From Gammaproteobacteria bacterium (GTDB taxonomy: Bacteria > Pseudomonadota > Gammaproteobacteria > Eutrophobiales > Eutrophobiaceae), in the NCBI GenBank assembly GCA_965243205.1, contig CBDEUK010000002.1:544001-608000 (forward strand): a stretch of 64,000 nucleotides of DNA, given 5' to 3'. Under the pieces are notes generated by a model. The model was not told the origin of the DNA. It saw nothing but the letters and a program-made list of their open reading frames with translations, and did not search any database. Positions 3,799 to 44,156 of the stretch are shown piece after piece. Numbering within the stretch: the first letter of the stretch is position 1; every line of letters starts with the position of its first letter. Position numbers and translations under genes: made by a program.

Positions 3799-6700
3799 TT
3801 ACTGGTAGCTCACGGCTATATTGTCCTCGCCAAAATCGGTCTTTAGTTTTTCCAATAAGTCGTTACTTAATGAGACTTTCCAGTCTTGGCCTAAAGGTAA
3901 TAAACAGCGAGCTTGGCCATTATTATATGCGATAAATACAGGCGTTTGTCCCTGATTATACTTAAATAAAGTCGATTTGAGTTGTTTTATCTCATTATCC
4001 ATCGATTGGCTAGTTTTCAATGTTAATAATAATTTAGCATGCCTTGAACGGTATTCTTCTAAACTCAGTATTTCTTTCGCTTCAATTGAACGGCCTGAAC
4101 TCGCATATTCATCTTCTTTTACCTCTCCTAACACGATAATGAGCTGATCTTTTAGTAATAGATGCTGATATTTCTGATAAGGTTCTGAATAAACCGTTGC
4201 TACTTGTAAAGCAGTATTATCATCTAACCTTACTTCCGCCATTTTTCCACGACTGGTATTTCTAACTCGAATACTATGTACATAGGCCGCAACGGTTATT
4301 CCACCCAAGCCCATTGTTCTCAATTTCTGTCTGGTAAATTGCTCGATTTCTGTTCGAAATTGTTCGATTGGATGACCATAGAGATAAAATCCCAGCGATT
4401 CTTTTTCACGTTTTAAACGTTCATCATCAGACCATTCGGCAACATTGATAAAATCGCCCGATGCATCTGTATCCGTATCCACTTGTTCAAAACCGAATAC
4501 ATCAATCTGTCCTGTATTCTTATTTTGATTGTATTGCTCAGCCATTGATATAGCTTTATCCAAACTCGCCATCAAAATACTACGACTGGGACCTAATTTA
4601 TCCATTGCACCACAGTTAATCGCCGCTTCAATCACGCGTCTATTTACTTTTTGCAGATTGACCCTTTTACAAAAATCAAACAAATCTTTATATGCGCCAT
4701 GATCTTGAATATCTTCCAAGATGGTTTCAATCGCTGCTTTACCTACGCCTTTGACTGCACCTAATCCATAAAGGATCGTTTTATCATCGACGACACTAAA
4801 AACATGTTGGCTGGTATTGATATCGGGTGGTAATAACTCAATCCCCATATCTTGGATTTCAGAGCGTAACATCACAACTTTTTCAGTGTTATCCATATCT
4901 GAAGATAATACTGCTGACATAAATGCCGCCGAGTAATGTGTTTTTAACCAAGCAGTTTGATAGGCAACTAATGCATAAGCTGCTGAGTGGGATTTATTGA
5001 AACCGTAACCAGCAAACTTTTCCATTAAATCAAAAATAAAAGTAGCTTGTTTCTCATCGACACCGCGATCAACGCTACCTTTAGTAAAAATCTCTCGCTG
5101 CTTATTCATCTCTTCGGGTTTTTTCTTACCCATCGCACGACGTAATAAATCCGCACCGCCTAATGTATAACCTGCTAAGACTTGCGCAATCTGCATTACC
5201 TGTTCTTGATATAAGATCACACCATGAGTCGGTCTTAAAATATCATCCAAACTAGGATGTAATGATTCAACTCTAGCTCGACCATGTTTACGTTCTACAT
5301 AATCATCCACCATACCCGACTGCAACGGGCCAGGACGAAATAAGGCAACCAACGCTATTAAGTCATCAAATTTATCAGGCTTTAATCGCCCAATGAGTTT
5401 TTTCATGCCATCCGATTCTAATTGGAATATCGCAGTGGTATCCGTTTTTTGAATCAATCGATACGTTGTTTCATCATCCAAAGGTATATCATTTATATTG
5501 AGTAAATCTTGTTTTTGTTTATTCCTTTGTTTGTTAACCTCGATTACAGTCCAGTCAATAATGGTTAATGTTCTTAAGCCCAAAAAATCAAACTTAACTA
5601 AACCAATCGACTCAACATCATTCATATCGAACTGACTAACTTTTGCAGTAGAACCTTGTTCACAATATAAAGGCATGTATTCAATCAATGGTTTCGGTGC
5701 GATCAAGATACCACCTGCATGCTTGCCCGCATTACGACTCAAACCTTCTAGTTTTAGTGCTAAATCAAATAAGGTTTTTACTTCATCTTCAGAGTTATAC
5801 CGTTGACGCAAAGCTTCTTCAGCAGCTAAAGCTTTATCTAACGTCATACCTATTTCAAATGGAATTAATTTAGCAAGTTGATCGACGAAGCCGTAAGGGA
5901 AACCCAATACACGTCCAACATCTCGCACCACAGCTTTCGCTGCCATACTACCGTAGGTAATAATTTGAGAAACATGCCCTCTTCCATATTTTTCTGCAAC
6001 ATAGTCAATCACCTCATCACGACGTTCCATACAAAAGTCGACATCAAAATCAGGTAATGAAACTCGCTCTGGATTTAAAAAACGTTCAAACAGCAGTTCA
6101 TACTTTAAAGGATCAAGATCAGTAATACCTAAAGCATACGCGACTAAAGAACCAGCGCCCGAGCCACGTCCTGGTCCTACTGGAATTGCATTTTCTTTTG
6201 CCCATTGAATAAAATCAGCAACAATTAAAAAGTAGCCCGGGAAACCCATTTGAATAATGACATCAAGCTCGATATCGAGTCGTTTAATATATTCTTCTTT
6301 ATTAAGTGATTGGTTCGAACGTTCTAATATTGTTTTCAGACCTGAATGTGATTGTTCTCTTAACCATCCACTTTGATCATAGTTTTTAGGCACTGGAAAT
6401 TCAGGTAAATAATGTTCTCCCAGTGTTAACTCTAAATTACAACGCTTTGCTATCTCAACAGTATTCTCAATTGCCTCAGGTATATCTTTAAATAGTTCTA
6501 TCATTTCTTCAGAACTTTTTAAATATTGTTGTTGACTATAATTTTTAGGGCGCCGTTGATCGTTTAGTGTATAACCGGTTTGAATACATACTCTTGCTTC
6601 ATGCGCTTCGAAATCTTCTTGTTCTAAAAAACATACATCATTAGTAGCGACTACAGGTAATTCGTAATCAACTGCGATTTGAATAGAATGCGCAATAATT

Positions 6701-20507: not shown

Positions 20508-21587
20508 TTAACCCTCTTTTACAAATTCTTTGGCTTGTTCCACCCAATTATCTCGGGTAATACGGCCTTTGAAGTTCAATTCTTCATCTAAACGCTCGAT
20601 ATCCGCTTCAGTAAAATCGGCAACTTGTTGGAAAGTTGTGATGCCTAAACCTTCCAATTTACCGACTAATACTGGACCGACGCCACTGATGCGAGTCAAA
20701 TCGTCTTTTTCAGCAGGAGCAGCTGATTTAGCTGGGGCTGGCTCTTTTTTAGCAGCAGGTTCGGCTTTTTTCTCTGCAGCTTTCTTAGTAGTTTTTTTCT
20801 TGGTCTGAACCTTAGCGGCTTTCTTGGTTTCTTTGACGATAGGATTACCATCAGCGTCCAGTTCAACAAAGTCTTCAGATGAACCTTCATCACCAATATG
20901 CATGGTAGTTGCTTTCGCATCTAAAATCGCATCCGCTACGCCTTGAGCGTAAAGTCTGATTGAACGAATCGCATCATCATTACCAGGAATAACGTAATCA
21001 ACGTTATCTGGGCTATTGTTACTGTCAACAACAGCAATAACCGGAATACCTAATTTTTTGGCTTCGTTAACCGCAATGTATTCAAAACCGACATCGATAA
21101 TGAATAATGCATCAGGAATACCCGGCATATCTTTAATGCCCGATAAAGAACGTTCTAGCTTTTCTAATTCACGTTGCTGTTGTAGCTGTTCTTTCTTGTT
21201 GAGGTGCTCGTGCTTGCCCTCTTCTCGAATGGTTTCTAATTCTTTCATGCGGTTAATCGATTGTTTAACCGTTTTGAAATTCGTTAAGGTGCCGCCCAAC
21301 CAGCGACGGTTGATGTATGGCATACCGCAACGTTCGGCTTCTTCTCGAATAATGCCTTGAGCTGCACGCTTGGTACCGACAAACAGAATCTTGCCTTTTT
21401 TTGCAGCTAATTTACCAATAAAATTAACAGCATCTTGGTAGAGCGGAAGGGTTTTTTCGAGGTTGATAATATGGATTTTGTTGCGTTGACCGAACAAATA
21501 AGGACCCATTTTAGGGTTCCAATAACGGGTTTGGTGTCCAAAATGGACGCCAGCTTCTAACATATCACGCATAGTGACATTTGACAT
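20508..21587 (-). CDS. rpsB: 30S ribosomal protein S2 with Lys/Ala-rich linker and C-terminal helix-hairpin-helix domain
   Basis: [44 protein letters not shown] 21587 follows an AGGAG SD; extra C-terminal [11 protein letters not shown] domain. Confidence 0.97.
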
Positions 21588-21603
21588 AATAGTTCTCCTG
21601 TTA

Positions 21604-21695
21604 GGGTTTTTGCCTCTGCACCCCCCGCATAACAACCCTTAATGGGCACCCCATATACGGTTTGAGTGTGCATGTGACGTTGGTTTGTGTAAACT
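21604..21695 (-). ncRNA. t44: rpsB 5' leader (t44 / S2 autoregulatory RNA)
   Basis: Minus strand reads ...ATGGGGTGCCCATTAAGGGTTG...GTGCAGAGGCAAAAACCC, matching the GGGGUGCCC..GGG..GAGGC pattern of gammaproteobacterial rpsB leaders. Confidence 0.75.
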
Positions 21696-27316: not shown

Positions 27317-27420
27317 TATTTTTTTGACAGGATTCAATCAGATACCCCTTGGACACAACTATGAACTATGGGAAGATGCGCGACTCTCAAACAGCGACGT
27401 TATTTAACATGAGGTTTCCA

Positions 27421-28086
27421 ATGAAATATTTTTTACTTTTCTTATCAACTAGCTTCGTCATGGCAGGCGCTTCAGCTGAAGTCACTCTAGATACCGAACA
27501 AAAAAAATTCAGCTATACCGTTGGTATTCAGATTGGTAGTAATTTAAAACAAGGCGATGAAATCGACCTTGATGCACTCAATGCTGCAATCAAAGATGCT
27601 TATACAGGCAATAAATACCAGCTTACGGTTGAAGAAATGCAAGCCGTTATGGGCAAATACCAAGAAAAACAATTTGCTCAACGAATCGAACAATCTACTG
27701 ATAATAAAAAAGCAGGTGATGCATTTTTAGAAGCTAATAAAGCCAAAGAAGGCGTTTCCGTTACTGACAGTGGCTTACAATATAAAATCATTAAAGCTAG
27801 TGATGGGAAAAAGCCAACTGCGAGTGATAGTGTGAAAGTTCATTATCATGGCACCTTAATTGACGGTACTGTCTTCGATAGCTCTGTTGAACGCGGAGAA
27901 CCTATCGTATTTGGTGTTGGTCAAGTTATCAAAGGCTGGCAAGAAGCATTACAATTAATGCCTGTCGGATCAAAATGGCAGATTTATGTACCATCGGAGC
28001 TTGCTTATGGCGAACGAGGTGCTGGTGCTAAAATCGGACCTAATGCAACATTAATCTTTGATGTTGAATTACTTGGAATTGAATAA
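27421..28086 (+). CDS. FKBP-type peptidyl-prolyl isomerase (FkpA/Mip family)
   Basis: Signal peptide, SGLQYKII, VHYHGTLIDGTVFDSS, VIKGWQEAL, ELAYG; ATG 27421 after GAGG. Confidence 0.93.
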   Translation: MKYFLLFLSTSFVMAGASAEVTLDTEQKKFSYTVGIQIGSNLKQGDEIDLDALNAAIKDAYTGNKYQLTVEEMQAVMGKYQEKQFAQRIEQSTDNKKAGDAFLEANKAKEGVSVTDSGLQYKIIKASDGKKPTASDSVKVHYHGTLIDGTVFDSSVERGEPIVFGVGQVIKGWQEALQLMPVGSKWQIYVPSELAYGERGAGAKIGPNATLIFDVELLGIE

Positions 28087-28092
28087 TCAGTA

Positions 28093-29067
28093 TTAATTTT
28101 TCTGACACATAGCAACCGATAGTTCATCGGTTGCTATGTAATTAGGATAATTTAAACAAATTTTATTAATAACTCCTTCAACGGCGTTAGCAACTAATTC
28201 AGGTTGCTCCGCATAGACTAAATGTCCACTATCTTCTGCAATGACTTGGGATGAATCTGTACTCAAATCCAATAACTCTTTCTGTAACTGCTTCCATATT
28301 TTTTCTTGTTGATCTCCATAAGGTGTATCTGGCCACACACGCTTTGCACGAGTAACAATCACTAAAGGTACATCCAATTGTCTTTTCACTTGACTCACTT
28401 GTACCCCACTCTGAGTAAAATTTAAAAACTCACGTTGTTGAGTACGTATCGATTTATCAGAAGATAAGAATTGGCCCGCTTGAATGCGATAGGGCTCAGG
28501 GTAGTTTCTCAATATCCTCGGATCAAACATAGTAGTTAAACGTTGTCTGCTTTGACTTTTTGCCGCTTTTAGAGGGATATCAGGCAAACGACTAAATTGC
28601 TCTGGATGCGATGATTCAACTAACACTAATCCTGCAACCAATTTTGGATATAATTTACTAAAATATTGGACATTAAAGCCTCCGAACGAATGCCCCACCA
28701 ATACATAAGGCGGTGCTAAATCGGCCTTCATTAACAGCTCATGGAATTCGTCGACAATTTGCTCTGTCACACGAGGTGATGGTCCTTCATCACTCCAACC
28801 ATAGCCTGCTCTATCATAGGTGCAAATAGTCGACACATCCTTTAATTTATATTGGACTTTGAGCCAATCCATTGAGAAACCACCAAGACCTGAATCAAAA
28901 ATAACAACTGGCCGCCCTTTTCCTTCACAATTGATATGTAATTGATATCCATCAATATCGACCATTTTGCCAAATGGCGTAATTTCTTCAAATTCTTGTG
29001 CCAACAATCCATCTATGAAAAGAATTAAAGAAAAAATGACCAATAATTTAATACGTCTCAAATTCAT
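28093..29067 (-). CDS. Exported alpha/beta hydrolase
   Basis: YDRAGYGWS, GHSFGG nucleophile elbow, SGH. Confidence 0.88.
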   Translation of the reverse strand: MNLRRIKLLVIFSLILFIDGLLAQEFEEITPFGKMVDIDGYQLHINCEGKGRPVVIFDSGLGGFSMDWLKVQYKLKDVSTICTYDRAGYGWSDEGPSPRVTEQIVDEFHELLMKADLAPPYVLVGHSFGGFNVQYFSKLYPKLVAGLVLVESSHPEQFSRLPDIPLKAAKSQSRQRLTTMFDPRILRNYPEPYRIQAGQFLSSDKSIRTQQREFLNFTQSGVQVSQVKRQLDVPLVIVTRAKRVWPDTPYGDQQEKIWKQLQKELLDLSTDSSQVIAEDSGHLVYAEQPELVANAVEGVINKICLNYPNYIATDELSVAMCQKN

Positions 29068-40475: not shown

Positions 40476-41747
40476 ATGTCATCAAAAACCAGCTGGCAAA
40501 AAATGATTGCATTTATTGATATGGATGCGTTTTTTGCTGCTATCGAAAAGATGGACAACCCCAAGTTAAAGCATACCCCTATAGGCGTAACCAATGGCGC
40601 ACAAGGTACTTGCTTAATTACCTGTTCTTATGAAGCTCGAGCATACGGTATACATACAGGTATGCGGCTTAAAGCTGCCCGAGAATTATGTCCGGAGCTC
40701 GTTCAATGTCCAGCTCGACCAACTCGTTATGCAGAAATCTCCACGGCGATTATGCGTAGCCTGCATAACATCAGCCCAGATATTGAAGTGTTCTCAGTCG
40801 ATGAAGCCTTTATTGATATCACTCATTGCCAACGTTATTGGAATCTAACACCTCGACAAATTGCACTTAAAATTCAACAAACTGTGTTTGAAGCTAGTGG
40901 CGTCACCTGTACTGTCGGTATTAGTGGCGATAAGACCACGGCTAAATATGCTGCGAAACAAGTCAAACCAAATCGAACTAATTATGTGGAACCCTGGCGC
41001 GCTCGAGAATTTTTAGAAGAAGTGCCCGTTACAAAACTGTGTGGTATTGGCAAAGGCATAGGACGTTTTCTTGAAGCCTATAAAGTAAAGACATGTGGTG
41101 ATATGGCAAAGCTTCCTATTAGTGTTCTTGGTAAACGCTTTGGTAATCCAGGAAAACGTATTTGGCATATGTGCCAAGGCACTGATCCTGCGAATCTCGA
41201 CACACGTATCTCTGCTCCCAAATCGATGGGGCATGGCAAGGTCATGCCACCAAACACTCGTGATCATAATATCGTCTTAACGTATTTAATCCACATGAGC
41301 GAAAAGCTTGCTGCGCGTTTACGTAAGCATCACTTACAAGCTCAATCTTTTTGGATTGCGTTACGCACAAATAAACAATGGTTTGGCGATAAATTTATAT
41401 GCGTATTTCCAACTGACCATAGTCAAGATATTATTCATCTCTGTGAAAGTTTGCTTAACTCATTACCAAACCAAGCAGGCGTTAGTGGCGTGCAAGTCAC
41501 TGCGATCGATCCAAGACCTACGGGACAACAAAGCGACCTATTTATTGAAATAGATGAAAAACAACAACAGGTCGATCATGTCATGGATTCTATTAATAAT
41601 CGTTATGGCGAATTTGCCTTAGCCCCAGCACAATTATTAAACCGTTCTAAAATGCCAAATGTTATCGCGCCAGCTTGGAAACCATATGGTCATAGGCAGT
41701 TTATTCCTAACGAAACCAATAAAGAATCGCATAGTCATATTTATTAG
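40476..41747 (+). CDS. dinB: Y-family DNA polymerase IV
   Basis: FIDMDAFFAAIE, SYEARAYG, SVDEAFID, KSMGH little-finger region. Confidence 0.93.
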   Translation: MSSKTSWQKMIAFIDMDAFFAAIEKMDNPKLKHTPIGVTNGAQGTCLITCSYEARAYGIHTGMRLKAARELCPELVQCPARPTRYAEISTAIMRSLHNISPDIEVFSVDEAFIDITHCQRYWNLTPRQIALKIQQTVFEASGVTCTVGISGDKTTAKYAAKQVKPNRTNYVEPWRAREFLEEVPVTKLCGIGKGIGRFLEAYKVKTCGDMAKLPISVLGKRFGNPGKRIWHMCQGTDPANLDTRISAPKSMGHGKVMPPNTRDHNIVLTYLIHMSEKLAARLRKHHLQAQSFWIALRTNKQWFGDKFICVFPTDHSQDIIHLCESLLNSLPNQAGVSGVQVTAIDPRPTGQQSDLFIEIDEKQQQVDHVMDSINNRYGEFALAPAQLLNRSKMPNVIAPAWKPYGHRQFIPNETNKESHSHIY

Positions 41748-41766
41748 TTTTTTCCATAATTTATAT

Positions 41767-42096
41767 ATGCAGCTAAATAACCTCACAACATATTGTTTGA
41801 TGATTTGTTTATTGCTTACAGGGTTTAATTACTCCATAAGTCAATTCTCAAACAATGAACGGGAACCTATTGGAATATCAGATACTGTATCTGAAAACAC
41901 AATAGCGCATGATTGTTGTGAGGATGACCAAAATAATATGAACTGTGCGGATCATTGTTTAAGTATTTTTTCAGCTTGTATACTTTTTAACCAACCAATC
42001 ATTACTAATTTTTATAAAAGACAATTATACGAATCTATTCAGATAGTTTTTCCAATCAATAAAAGTACTTCATTATATCGCCCTCCTATCGCCTAA
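41767..42096 (+). CDS. CopL/CutF/DUF2946-like Cys-rich leader protein with C-terminal RPP motif
   Basis: Hydrophobic N-terminus, HDCCED, CADHC, ends LYRPPIA; directly upstream of a multicopper oxidase. Confidence 0.75.
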   Translation: MQLNNLTTYCLMICLLLTGFNYSISQFSNNEREPIGISDTVSENTIAHDCCEDDQNNMNCADHCLSIFSACILFNQPIITNFYKRQLYESIQIVFPINKSTSLYRPPIA

Positions 42097-42127
42097 ACGT
42101 TTAGTTTTTTCTTTTAACGTTTAGGAG
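42083..42127 (+). promoter_or_regulatory. SD-sequestering hairpin between leader ORF and multicopper oxidase
   Basis: CCTAAACGTT (42092-42101) and AACGTTTAGG (42116-42125) form a perfect inverted repeat overlapping the AGGAG SD; CTCCTA (42083-42088) is also complementary to TAGGAG. Confidence 0.75.
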
Positions 42128-42134
42128 ATTAAAA

Positions 42135-44156
42135 ATGAGATTTTTAACTTACAGCATACTGCTGTTTATGTTTTGTATTAGCTATAAAAGCTATAGCAAA
42201 GAACAGTTTTATGAATTAGATATCAATTACAAAACTACCAATATTACTGGTGAATCTATAGAAGCTATGTTGATTAACAATCAATTACCAGGACCAGTTT
42301 TAGAATTTACTGAAGGTGATGTCGCGATTATAAAAGTCAACAACCATTTAAGATCTGATGCCTCTATTCATTGGCACGGTTTATTATTACCACAAGATCA
42401 AGACGGTGTACCTTATATCACCTATTACCCAATCAAACCTGGAGAAAGCTTTACTTATCGATTTCCAATAACTCATACAGGAACTTATTGGTATCATTCA
42501 CATACCTTAATTGATGAACAACGTGGACAATATGGTTCTATCATTATTCATCCAAAACAAAAACGTAATTTAAAATACGATCATGATGTGGTAGTCCAAT
42601 TATCAGACTGGACTAATGAGAGCCCTGTTCAAGCATTACGCAATTTGAAAAAAAATGGCGACTGGTATTCTTTAAAAAAGAACTCTGTCATCAGTTTATA
42701 TGGTTATTTGGAACACAATGCCTTTTCTAATTGGCTTAGTAACCGTTGGATGCGTATGGATGGAATGGATGTTAGCGATGTTGGATATGACGCATTTTTA
42801 GCTAATGGGGTTGCGCAACTAAAACTATTAGCTAACGCTAAAGCAGGAGACGTTATAAGACTTCGTTTTATTAATTCTGCAGCTTCTAGTTATTTTCGTT
42901 TAGAACAAAGTAATACACCGTTTACAGTAATTAACGCAGACGGTATTGATGTCCAACCTATTACTGTCGATAAAATTTTAATGGGTATGGCAGAAACCTA
43001 TGATGTTTTAGTCACAGTTCCAGAATCAGGAGGATTAGAAATCAATGCCAATAATATCGATGGCACGGGAAAAGCTTCGATTAGAATCGGTTCTGGAAAG
43101 TTTATAGCAGCCCCATTACCGATAAAACCTAATCTATATGCTAAGATGAATCATGGCTCGCATACAATGATACATAATAAAAATAATAATAAGGAACATC
43201 ATCATAAGCATCATAACAAACATAATAAAAAACAACTGAGTTATAAGATGCTAAAAACTGTTACTCCAATAAAATATGAAGGCAAAGTAAGAACCATAAA
43301 ACTTGATTTAACAGGTGATATGGAAAGCTATAATTGGAATTTTAATAACACACCATTAACCGATGCTGATGTCATAAAAATCAAGCGGGGAGATGTTGTT
43401 CGTTTCGAACTTAATAATAAAACCATGATGCGACATCCTCTTCATTTACATGGTCATTTCTTTAAGGTGATTTCTGGAAATGAAGAATATGATGTATTAA
43501 AACATACCGTTGATATTGGACCAATGGAAAAAGTAACCATCGAGTTTACTGCTAACGAAGAGAAAGATTGGTTTTTTCATTGCCATAATCTTTATCATGC
43601 TAAAACAGGCATGGCTAGAGTTATCCGTTATCATGATTATCCAGGTAACTCTGACTTTATAAAAGCAAAGAAAACCAGTAATGAAATCATGGATGACGAT
43701 TGGTATTCACGATTAGATTTAAGCTTATATAATAATTTTATCGCTGGTAAATTACGTCTTAGTAATTTTCATTATAGTATCGAAATAGATTCAGAACGAG
43801 CAGATTGGCAAGAAAACCAAATTCATTTATCTATTAACCGAAGGGTAAATCGTTGGACTCGTGTTTTTATTGGAAGTGAATACGAAACTGACAAAGGCAC
43901 AGAATATCAATTAGGTATCCGCTATCACACGCCTTTTTCTTTTGAAACAGCTGTATGGCTGAACGATGAGCTAGAACCCAATGGCCGTTTAGGAACTGAA
44001 TTGCAACTAACGAAACATATTGTAACAGAATTTAGTATCGATACAGAGGATGATTGGTTTTTTGATATAGAATATCGTTTCTCGCCTAATATAAGTTTAA
44101 ATACAGGAGTCAGAGATAATTCCGATTGGGGAGTAGGTATTAAATTGATATTTTAA
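42135..44156 (+). CDS. Multicopper oxidase (CopA-like) with His-rich insert and C-terminal CopB-like beta-barrel
   Basis: HWHG, WYHSH, HPLHLHGH, HCHNLYH..GM copper motifs; amphipathic C-terminal strands ending in Phe. Confidence 0.92.
   Translation: MRFLTYSILLFMFCISYKSYSKEQFYELDINYKTTNITGESIEAMLINNQLPGPVLEFTEGDVAIIKVNNHLRSDASIHWHGLLLPQDQDGVPYITYYPIKPGESFTYRFPITHTGTYWYHSHTLIDEQRGQYGSIIIHPKQKRNLKYDHDVVVQLSDWTNESPVQALRNLKKNGDWYSLKKNSVISLYGYLEHNAFSNWLSNRWMRMDGMDVSDVGYDAFLANGVAQLKLLANAKAGDVIRLRFINSAASSYFRLEQSNTPFTVINADGIDVQPITVDKILMGMAETYDVLVTVPESGGLEINANNIDGTGKASIRIGSGKFIAAPLPIKPNLYAKMNHGSHTMIHNKNNNKEHHHKHHNKHNKKQLSYKMLKTVTPIKYEGKVRTIKLDLTGDMESYNWNFNNTPLTDADVIKIKRGDVVRFELNNKTMMRHPLHLHGHFFKVISGNEEYDVLKHTVDIGPMEKVTIEFTANEEKDWFFHCHNLYHAKTGMARVIRYHDYPGNSDFIKAKKTSNEIMDDDWYSRLDLSLYNNFIAGKLRLSNFHYSIEIDSERADWQENQIHLSINRRVNRWTRVFIGSEYETDKGTEYQLGIRYHTPFSFETAVWLNDELEPNGRLGTELQLTKHIVTEFSIDTEDDWFFDIEYRFSPNISLNTGVRDNSDWGVGIKLIF

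Follow-up and report, generated by a model that had tools for sequence, protein, structure and literature searches.

A stretch of 64,000 nucleotides (nt) of DNA from a Gammaproteobacteria bacterium (contig CBDEUK010000002.1, positions 544,001 to 608,000 of the forward strand; hereafter the window) carries on its + strand a small open reading frame (ORF) of 109 amino acids plus stop, at 41767..42096, followed by a multicopper oxidase gene at 42135-44156 (+) that encodes 673 amino acids. Judged by its sequence, the small ORF is a divergent CopL-like leader of the CutF/CopL kind, and the downstream gene is, as modelled, a CopA-PcoB fusion; with copA and copB fused, the content of the locus matches that of Xanthomonas and Stenotrophomonas copLAB, and it amounts to the Xanthomonas copLAB set in compact form, a copL and one copA-copB gene. 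The full explanation that we favour, and regard as on balance probable, is that the leader is a translated, cis-acting, CopL/CutF-like gate on translation of the copA-pcoB fusion. By analogy with these systems the leader would be translated and exported, ribosomes would pause on its Pro-Pro codons and the outcome would depend on copper.

The first-pass annotation of this DNA had proposed a transcription-factor-free copper switch in a new lineage. The claim to novelty falls away, as Ozturk et al. 2023 (PMC9973294) lists 5,334 CutF-like proteins, including CopL (sequence similarity network cluster 29) and CruR, and puts CopL forward as an isofunctional counterpart of CutF. Both the principle and its application to CopL are thus in the literature; our results leave the known principle unchanged, and the locus is a divergent example of it. 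What it would offer is a compact transcription-factor-free copper switch in which only a leader and 38 nt of spacer precede one fused CopA-PcoB gene, and because the geometry of its clamp over the oxidase Shine-Dalgarno (SD) sequence is easy to read, it makes a convenient minimal model of the CutF/CopL mechanism.

The CopL-like leader and its family

The leader starts 19 nt 3' of the stop codon of dinB (40476-41747), and the oxidase ATG at 42135 follows its own stop codon, TAA at 42094-42096, after the 38-nt spacer. Its N-terminus is hydrophobic (YCLMICLLLTGF), and the signal-peptide-like part of it (MQLNNLTTYCLMICLLLTGFNYSIS; 41767..41841, +), read by eye from the translation, has a 12-residue hydrophobic core and an S-I-S site, with no Lys or Arg in the first 8 residues. 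Two groups of putative metal ligands follow, the HDCC codons (H47-C50; 41905..41916, +), aligned to the (P)CH motif of the family, and the CADHC codons (C60-C64; 41944..41958, +), a CxxxC metal-ligand cluster. The Arg-Pro-Pro codons of R105, P106 and P107 (42079..42087, +), which form the proposed pause site, belong to the C-terminal sequence LYRPPIA. All of these elements had been described in the first-pass annotation together with the AGGAG of the oxidase SD, and each was found where it had been placed. Ozturk et al. 2023 filtered CutF-like proteins by, among others, a length below 150 residues, Pro-Pro within the last 15 and an N-terminal Sec signal peptide called by SignalP; the ORF has 109 residues (136 and 145 from alternative starts), its prolines are residues 106 and 107 of 109, and its N-terminus is the signal-peptide-like one just described.

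Against the NCBIfam model CopL_fam (NF033807) the leader scores 25.4 bits (E = 1.7e-5), with residues 44-109 on profile positions 67-129 of 129. Related loci were fetched through the oxidase, and the eight closest, seven from Paraglaciecola and one from Cellvibrionaceae, have oxidases of 52-56% identity to that of the window. In all eight, a small ORF with a signal peptide and Cys/His motifs lies directly upstream of the oxidase gene, ending in [Y/F]RPP[I/T]xxxx-stop in seven loci and in LLRPPAYS-stop in the other, and C60 and C64 are invariant in the eight sequences of a first alignment. The leader of Paraglaciecola algarum (L004) is split over two overlapping frames (5664-5795 and 5716-5943), through either a frameshift or a sequencing error, and has a MarR-family gene just upstream.

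A profile made from the window leader and seven of its neighbours was searched against 1.84 billion representatives and found 60 proteins at E ≤ 1e-3. After removal of two long repetitive matches, a 43-residue fragment and the longer version of the window leader, 57 small proteins were aligned, the window ORF and 56 profile matches. CopL_fam matches 31 of these, DUF2946 9 (at E ≤ 0.01) and CzcI 6. Despite a mean column identity of 16%, the Pro-Pro pair is invariant in all 57, and the Cys and His ligand columns, C60 and C64 among them, are at least 90% conserved. The C-terminal consensus is [Y25/F14/L9]-[R37/K5]-P-P-[I42/K7/R6], with Tyr, Phe or Leu at -2 from Pro-Pro in 48 of the 57 sequences, Arg directly before it in 37 and Ile directly after it in 42; only 1-5 residues separate Pro-Pro from the stop in 56. 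Near the N-terminus, a hydrophobic stretch (at least 9 of 12 residues) is present in 54 sequences, and 51 have Lys or Arg in the first 8 residues. Of the three spacings measured, the one between the final Cys of the cluster and the first Pro varies least, with a median of 39 residues (interquartile range 38-41, standard deviation 2.4); the spacings from CH to the Cys cluster (standard deviation 4.5) and from the N-terminus to CH (12.2) are looser. The CopL_fam match, this family of 57 sequences and the LIRPPIG end of Xanthomonas citri CopL together uphold the CopL/CutF-like assignment that had been made earlier.

Curated models miss this whole divergent clade. When nine relatives were tested against CopL_fam, six scored 17.6-36.7 bits and three gave no match, all below the cut-off, as against 112 bits for X. 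citri CopL. Queried with the leader, a word-index homology search recovered nothing beyond its 136-residue version from the window itself, and the same kind of search with the 57-sequence profile gave 12 matches, named only 'hypothetical protein'; tblastn of one relative (P0038) against plasmids gave no match. Further CopL-like ORFs were seen at L002 4212-4601, L003 8213-8602, L031 8151-8615, L011 3223-3687, L053 (-) 490-870 and L068 (-) 4378-4728, with C-termini that read SLYRPPIFTS, SIFRPPIA, FQPPKSNA or QKPPPRA. These precede other genes, a TonB-dependent receptor and a CusB-like gene in L003 and resistance-nodulation-division (RND) pumps in L031 and L053.

Several properties of the leader count against reading it as a translated member of this family. 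Its CopL_fam score lies below the curated cut-off of 40 bits, and it has no Pfam match, PF11162 (DUF2946) at E ≤ 1 included. As a profile search disfavours insertions and deletions, part of the constancy of the Cys-to-Pro-Pro spacing is due to selection of the matches. The ATG at 41767 has no SD-like sequence in front of it, and the frame could also begin farther upstream, at 41659 or 41686; a gene caller chose the 136-residue form (P0004), and the start codon is ambiguous. The leader is also one of just six among the 57 relatives with an N-terminal region free of Lys and Arg.

The leader might instead be a stable metal-binding protein, periplasmic or membrane-anchored, that acts in trans as a CopL regulator or as a copper chaperone for the oxidase, the hairpin described below being incidental or serving to stabilise the mRNA. 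The NCBI family name 'metal-binding regulatory protein' suits such a role, the Xanthomonas literature calls copL an activator, and an oxidase that has no twin-arginine signal would acquire its copper outside the cytoplasm. We nevertheless think a protein acting in trans decidedly unlikely. The region between the Cys cluster and Pro-Pro has kept its length but not its sequence, an uncommon pattern in a folded domain; conservation of the C-terminal motif runs all the way to the stop, which lies inside the clamp in three lineages; and, according to PMC9973294 and 10.1101/2025.02.05.636593, CutF is degraded after export and works in cis only, and copL is reported to be inactive in trans.

A predicted hairpin over the oxidase Shine-Dalgarno sequence

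The stop codon of the leader and the SD of the oxidase lie in opposite arms of a perfect 10-bp inverted repeat (42092-42101 / 42116-42125). In the first-pass annotation this repeat had been credited with covering the start of the SD; it is present and in fact extends to 13 of 14 bp (arms 42088-42101 / 42116-42129), and since it reaches 42129 the whole SD is paired. The 5' arm (42088..42101, +) comprises the Ile-Ala codons, the stop TAA and 5 nt of spacer, a 14-nt U-rich loop occupies 42102..42115 (+), and the 3' arm (42116..42129, +) contains the AGGAG (42123-42127). The predicted fold of the hairpin by itself has an energy of -13.9 kcal/mol, and that of the 91-nt region -17.2 kcal/mol (z = -2.9), with 2 of 200 shuffles folding as well. 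Repeats of 13/14 with a loop of 3-20 nt number 2 in the window compared with 0.32 expected from 100 dinucleotide shuffles, 3 of which reach 2. The other such repeat (28106-28140, 7-nt loop) lies between the convergent ORFs 27349-28086 (FKBP-type isomerase) and 28093-29067 and is probably a bidirectional terminator. A further anti-SD, CTCCTA in the Pro-Pro-Ile codons (42083-42088), had also been pointed out; it is there, complementary to TAGGAG, as a result of the CCT codons, and no predicted fold uses it.

The 5' arm also holds an exact 12-bp palindrome, CTAAACGTTTAG (42093-42104), the half-site of which, AACGTTTAG, recurs 20 nt downstream, and matches to CTAAACGTTTAG with at most 2 mismatches occur 15 times in the window compared with 3.5 expected, a count that none of 100 shuffles reaches. 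The palindrome, the repeated half-site and the excess of near-matches could be taken to mean that the inverted repeat is a DNA operator for a repressor, or else an RNA processing or stability element, unrelated to the ribosome on the leader. We give this hardly any credence. The 13 window matches outside the hairpin carry 1-2 mismatches and are located elsewhere, and the excess may reflect oligonucleotide bias; the window ORFs of at least 100 residues include no nearby regulator gene, and an Rfam search gave chance-level matches only, far below gathering scores. The relatives, moreover, differ in sequence yet retain the pairing, with compensatory changes, a pattern indicative of RNA structure.

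This conservation is clearest in the seven Paraglaciecola loci, where the predicted consensus structure has three helices and the last codons of the leader and its stop pair with the SD region. Helix 1 joins the last codons of the leader to the SD region, helix 2 joins the stop-codon region to a U-run, and an apical hairpin forms helix 3. Pairing holds in 92.5% of the cells, and 6 of the 23 pairs have changed on both sides, whereas shuffles give 1.8, none of 500 attains 6 and slid controls give 0-1; the sample is only seven related sequences, and the structure comes from the same alignment. The sequence of the Paraglaciecola clamp is unrelated to that of the window. In the minimum free energy (MFE) fold of the X. 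citri copL-copA region, C-UAA-GCGUC, a segment that takes in the copL stop, is base-paired to GACGCUUGG at the SD of copA across a structured spacer of 115 nt. All three lineages place the end of the clamp's 5' strand at +15 or +16 nt, counted from where the second Pro codon begins; in the window that codon is Pro107, and the 5' arm spans +3 to +16. The leading edge of a ribosome whose P site holds the second Pro codon lies at about +15/+16.

To express the effect of the hairpin on initiation we used the predicted energy needed to open -18..+10 around the start codon, with a ribosome footprint of -12..+15. Mean SD pairing probability had been dropped as a metric, as shuffles average 0.5-0.7, random U-rich sequence pairing with the SD too; a weak local hairpin, moreover, takes over when the 5' arm is blocked. 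On free mRNA, opening the oxidase ribosome-binding site (RBS) is predicted to cost 13.5-13.9 kcal/mol, which ranks 6th among 54 ORF starts in the window (median 6.5 kcal/mol, standard deviation 3.5), and with a ribosome on Pro106, Pro107 or the last sense codon the cost falls to 5.2, 6.6 and 6.4 kcal/mol, respectively. Comparable drops are predicted for L001 (11.2 to 4.3-6.1 kcal/mol), L005 (13.3 to 6.0) and L012 (16.6 to 5.3-7.4), and smaller ones for L004 (11.4 to 7.4-9.2), L024 (9.1 to 5.6-7.0) and both L002 and L003 (7.3-7.7 to 3.8-5.6); X. citri goes from 13.9 to 9.3-10.5 kcal/mol. At predicted start codons, the highest opening costs in the window are those of rpsB (20508-21635; 16.6 kcal/mol) and dinB (start 40476; 16.4 kcal/mol).

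The gate that we favour would work as follows. On free mRNA, the 13-bp hairpin would pair the last two leader codons, the stop and 5 nt of spacer with the oxidase SD and make initiation costly. A ribosome on the Pro-Pro codons would hold the 5' arm, +3 to +16 relative to the Pro codon in the P site, within its mRNA channel, and the SD, 38 nt downstream, would then be accessible, as it would be a few codons later with the ribosome on the stop, so that the amount of oxidase made would depend on how long ribosomes dwell over the last leader codons. Copper bound to the nascent Cys/His cluster would, as homology to CutF suggests, lengthen the slow Pro-Pro step. The Cys cluster, ∼40 residues behind the Pro codons, would by then have just left the exit tunnel and be located at the translocon or in it; the ∼39-residue ruler would thus put it at the tunnel exit or the mouth of SecY and not in the periplasm.

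A terminating ribosome is predicted to open the clamp to the same extent, so a pause would not be required for coupling. The earlier claim that a ribosome paused at Arg-Pro-Pro melts the hairpin therefore holds for the predicted fall in cost, from 13.9 to 5.2-6.6 kcal/mol, and loses its exclusiveness. In plain translational coupling, the oxidase would need the leader to be translated to its stop, the leader would be no copper sensor, and any copper response would be transcriptional and come from a distant regulator. The predicted cost with the ribosome on the last sense codon is within the range of that on the Pro codons, as such coupling would have it; Arg-Pro-Pro by itself is reported not to stall E. 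coli ribosomes, and the regulator scan described below covered 64 kb out of a 2.33-Mb contig. Plain coupling nonetheless leaves unexplained why, in a family with so little overall identity, Pro-Pro is invariant, the Cys/His clusters are conserved and the spacing between Cys and Pro-Pro is fixed, and in CutF mutation of either the Cys or the Pro motif abolishes induction (PMC9973294; 10.1101/2025.02.05.636593). We consider it unlikely that coupling is all there is.

Going beyond the copper-dependent gate, we suggest, tentatively and with more doubt than confidence, that the CopL branch may have an arrest module of its own. It would consist of [Y/F/L]-R-P-P-I, with the stop 1-5 codons farther on and the Cys cluster 39 ± 2.4 residues back, so that the cluster would be at the mouth of SecY when the Pro-Pro bond has to be made. 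The anti-SD strand would end exactly at the leading edge of the ribosome (+15/+16), and copper would be read by the nascent chain at the ribosome-translocon junction. If true, such a module would account for the unexplained cis-requirement for copL in Xanthomonas copper resistance, and the same device would extend to the CopL-like ORFs that precede TonB receptor and RND pump genes.

The cis-acting gate has to be weighed against a number of results that do not favour it. In the opened state, a weak alternative anti-SD hairpin (42110-42117 with 42121-42128, -2.7 kcal/mol) can still cover the SD. Occlusion of the SD relative to shuffles is weak locus by locus (2/100 for the window and for L006, 12/100 for L012 and 26-37/100 for the other six), the opening cost of L006 is nearly unchanged (10.4 to 9.2-9.6 kcal/mol), and in the MFE folds of L002 and L003 themselves the SD is not paired to the tail of the leader. 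No clamp was found in two of four distant CopL-like pairs (L053 and L068); the covariation across leader-oxidase pairs to which the first-pass annotation had looked is seen within Paraglaciecola. Arg-Pro-Pro did not stall ribosomes in an E. coli CadC reporter, in which RPPP was the strongest staller. The Pro motif of CutF alone caused no stalling in LepB fusions, and it does not stall without copper (PMC9973294; 10.1101/2025.02.05.636593). Of the proposed steps, sensing in the periplasm is the least secure.

The oxidase-barrel gene and its genomic context

The multicopper oxidase part of the downstream protein (residues 1-500; 42135..43634, +) matches Pfam Cu-oxidase_3, Cu-oxidase and Cu-oxidase_2 and scores 387 bits on TIGR01480 (copper_res_A), below the cut-off of 479. 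Residues 26-493 are 41.5% identical to plasmid PcoA, and in tblastn against plasmids Klebsiella pcoA dominates among the matches listed, which include none from Xanthomonas. The N-terminus looks Sec-like and has no twin arginine. In the full-length AlphaFold2 (AF2) model, with a predicted local distance difference test (pLDDT) score of 87, a three-domain oxidase, the fold of which matches laccases and ascorbate oxidase, precedes 12 beta strands; model confidence is low in a His-rich loop (residues 341-364). The last 173 residues modelled alone (43635..44156, +) give a pLDDT of 91 and again 12 strands, the best Foldseek match to which is PcoB (7pge; E = 6.6e-6, template modelling score 0.61/0.55), and a profile match to 7pge_B has E = 0.0045. 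This C-terminal part, modelled as a PcoB/CopB-like 12-stranded outer-membrane barrel, has no Pfam match, CopB included; it ends in GVGIKLIF directly before the stop, and a C-terminal Phe is found in the window protein and in 59 of 62 complete relatives. All 62 related loci in which the ORF is complete (640-740 residues) share the oxidase-barrel architecture; they come from Paraglaciecola, Bdellovibrionota, Verrucomicrobiota, Planctomycetota and others. Among the papers listed by one literature search, none dealt with a fusion of the CopA-PcoB type, which is not proof that none exists.

The genes of the window run rpsB-tsf-pyrH-frr...bamA-lpxD-fabZ-lpxA-lpxB-rnhB-dnaE, an order that reads as gammaproteobacterial, with MutH also present and a GC content of 33-40%. 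In agreement with the first-pass annotation, which had noted no adjacent CueR or CopRS gene, a Pfam/NCBIfam scan of the 62 window ORFs of at least 100 residues, several of which have no family match, found no MerR, two-component, CsoR or CopY domain. A crude promoter scan found one + strand candidate between dinB and the oxidase, a weak sigma-70-like match, TAGTCA-17-CATAAT (41732..41760, +; 9 of 12 positions), that overlaps the 3' end of dinB and ends 7 nt before the leader ATG; with 3 such sites seen in the scanned region against 4.6 expected, it is not significant. Within the leader and the spacer, where a promoter of the oxidase's own had been named earlier as an alternative to the leader switch, the scan gave no + strand promoter-like site, and the hairpin was not recognised as a terminator.

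The genes that flank the leader-oxidase pair vary among the Paraglaciecola loci, and the same oxidase-barrel gene is paired with either the leader or a MerR regulator, by lineage. In Bdellovibrio-type loci, a MerR gene lies directly before it and there is no leader (Pfam-confirmed in 5 of 5 tested); in other loci, the 3' end of a P-type ATPase gene takes the place of MerR. Loci of this MerR or P-type ATPase kind among the matches listed are L011, L031, L033, L042, L053, L064, L070, L072, L076, L078 and L079. In Verrucomicrobiota and Planctomycetota, the oxidase-barrel gene is preceded by a different Cys-rich leader without Pro-Pro (L007, L008, L009, L010, L014, L016, L020, L022, L027, L029 and L080 among the matches listed). 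These second-class ORFs have a signal peptide, a CCC...CC...CxC pattern, a conserved C-terminus of the form F-x-R-x-x-x-[F/Y/W]-[L/I/R]-[I/L]-stop and no Pfam match, and may be a different kind of regulatory leader. The genomic context fits a self-contained cis module that replaces a transcription factor.

Comparison with known systems

The products of the locus resemble PcoA/PcoB and CopA/CopB, the oxidase being similar in sequence to PcoA and the modelled barrel most similar in fold to PcoB (7pge). The difference is that both functions reside here in one 673-residue polypeptide, with no copRS or pcoRS genes nearby in the window and a barrel that is shorter, at ∼150 residues in 12 strands. 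The leader has features in common with SecM, ApdA/ApdP and the RQH group of RAPP-like arrest peptides as described by Fujiwara et al. 2024 (PMC10987492), which are exported leaders with an Arg/Pro arrest motif, arrest opening an SD-masking structure. The RQH motif is (R/Q/H)-(A/G/D)-(P/G/S)-(P/G), whereas the leader has Y-R-P-P-I, with no Ala, Gly or Asp between Arg and Pro-Pro, and these peptides monitor the export machinery and not a metal.

For similar reasons the analogy that the first-pass annotation had drawn to the RAPP of CruR does not carry over, the motif here being [YFL]-R-P-P-I and not R-A-P-P, and RPP being reported as non-stalling in the E. coli reporter. CruR of Bordetella pertussis, a DUF2946 protein, is otherwise similar (Roy et al. 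2022, PMC9426467): it too is an upstream ORF that has a Cys motif and, at a conserved distance from it (45 residues in CruR), a C-terminal Arg/Pro-Pro motif set three residues short of the stop, and it gives copper regulation without a dedicated transcription factor. It differs in having CXXC with RAPP, in its target, a TonB-dependent transporter, in acting through Rho-dependent termination over a 162-nt spacer, with copper relieving the stall, and in that its signal peptide and elongation factor P (EF-P) are dispensable. Such logic could hold here as well, with a stall in the absence of copper that copper relieves and an effect on Rho-dependent termination or mRNA decay and not on SD access, given that CruR belongs to the same superfamily, has a similar ruler and works in this way (PMC9426467), and that, according to Ozturk et al. 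(PMC9973294), CutF-like proteins are not all isofunctional. We find it very improbable, however, as a downstream detoxifying oxidase should be induced and not repressed by copper, the spacer is only 38 nt long compared with the 162 nt of cruR-bfrG, and an SD-sequestering clamp matches the logic of CutF.

CutF of Rhodobacter capsulatus is, according to Ozturk et al. (2021, 2023; PMC9973294) and 10.1101/2025.02.05.636593, a Sec-exported and rapidly degraded leader before the oxidase CutO, the copper induction of which needs translation of cutF in cis, the CxxxC and C-terminal PPP motifs, the Sec signal and a stem-loop that shields the SD; losing EF-P has the same effect as copper, and Ozturk et al. 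argue in a way similar to ours from the 45-residue distance between Cys and Pro. Both leaders are small (118 residues in CutF, 109 here) and directly upstream of a multicopper oxidase, and both have CxxxC, a proline motif a few residues before the stop, a fixed Cys-to-Pro distance of ∼40-45 residues and a stem-loop over the SD, predicted in the window; the Sec signal of CutF has its counterpart in the signal-peptide-like N-terminus of the window leader. The window hairpin, which was compared with that of CutF by description only, has the stop codon itself inside the stem. The leaders differ in the proline motif (YRPPIA, with two prolines, versus PEPEGPPPRL, with three), and the window leader has no Pfam DUF2946 match; the oxidase here has a Sec-like and not a twin-arginine (Tat) signal and is fused to a PcoB-like barrel, and there is no cutG.

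The copLAB genes of X. citri (plasmid pLH201.1, reached through the accession in PMC5364209) provide the other comparison. CopL likewise lies upstream of copA and ends in LIRPPIG-stop, compared with LYRPPIA-stop here, the Cys cluster lies 37-41 residues before Pro-Pro in both (37 in X. citri), in each the stop codon of the leader is predicted to pair with the SD region of the oxidase gene, and X. citri CopL has no Pfam match either. The two leaders differ in their scores on CopL_fam (112 versus 25.4 bits), in length (139 versus 109 residues) and in spacer (115 versus 38 nt), and hhalign aligns only their last 15 columns. Where the window has dinB, X. citri has just upstream of copL an HTH_3-type gene, encoding a 116-residue HTH_3/HTH_31 regulator (L083 28422-28772, (-)), and copper control there may include a transcriptional layer as well. 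Together these comparisons link the poorly understood CopL of Xanthomonas to an RPPI-x-stop motif, a ruler between Cys and Pro, and a clamp between the stop codon and the SD.

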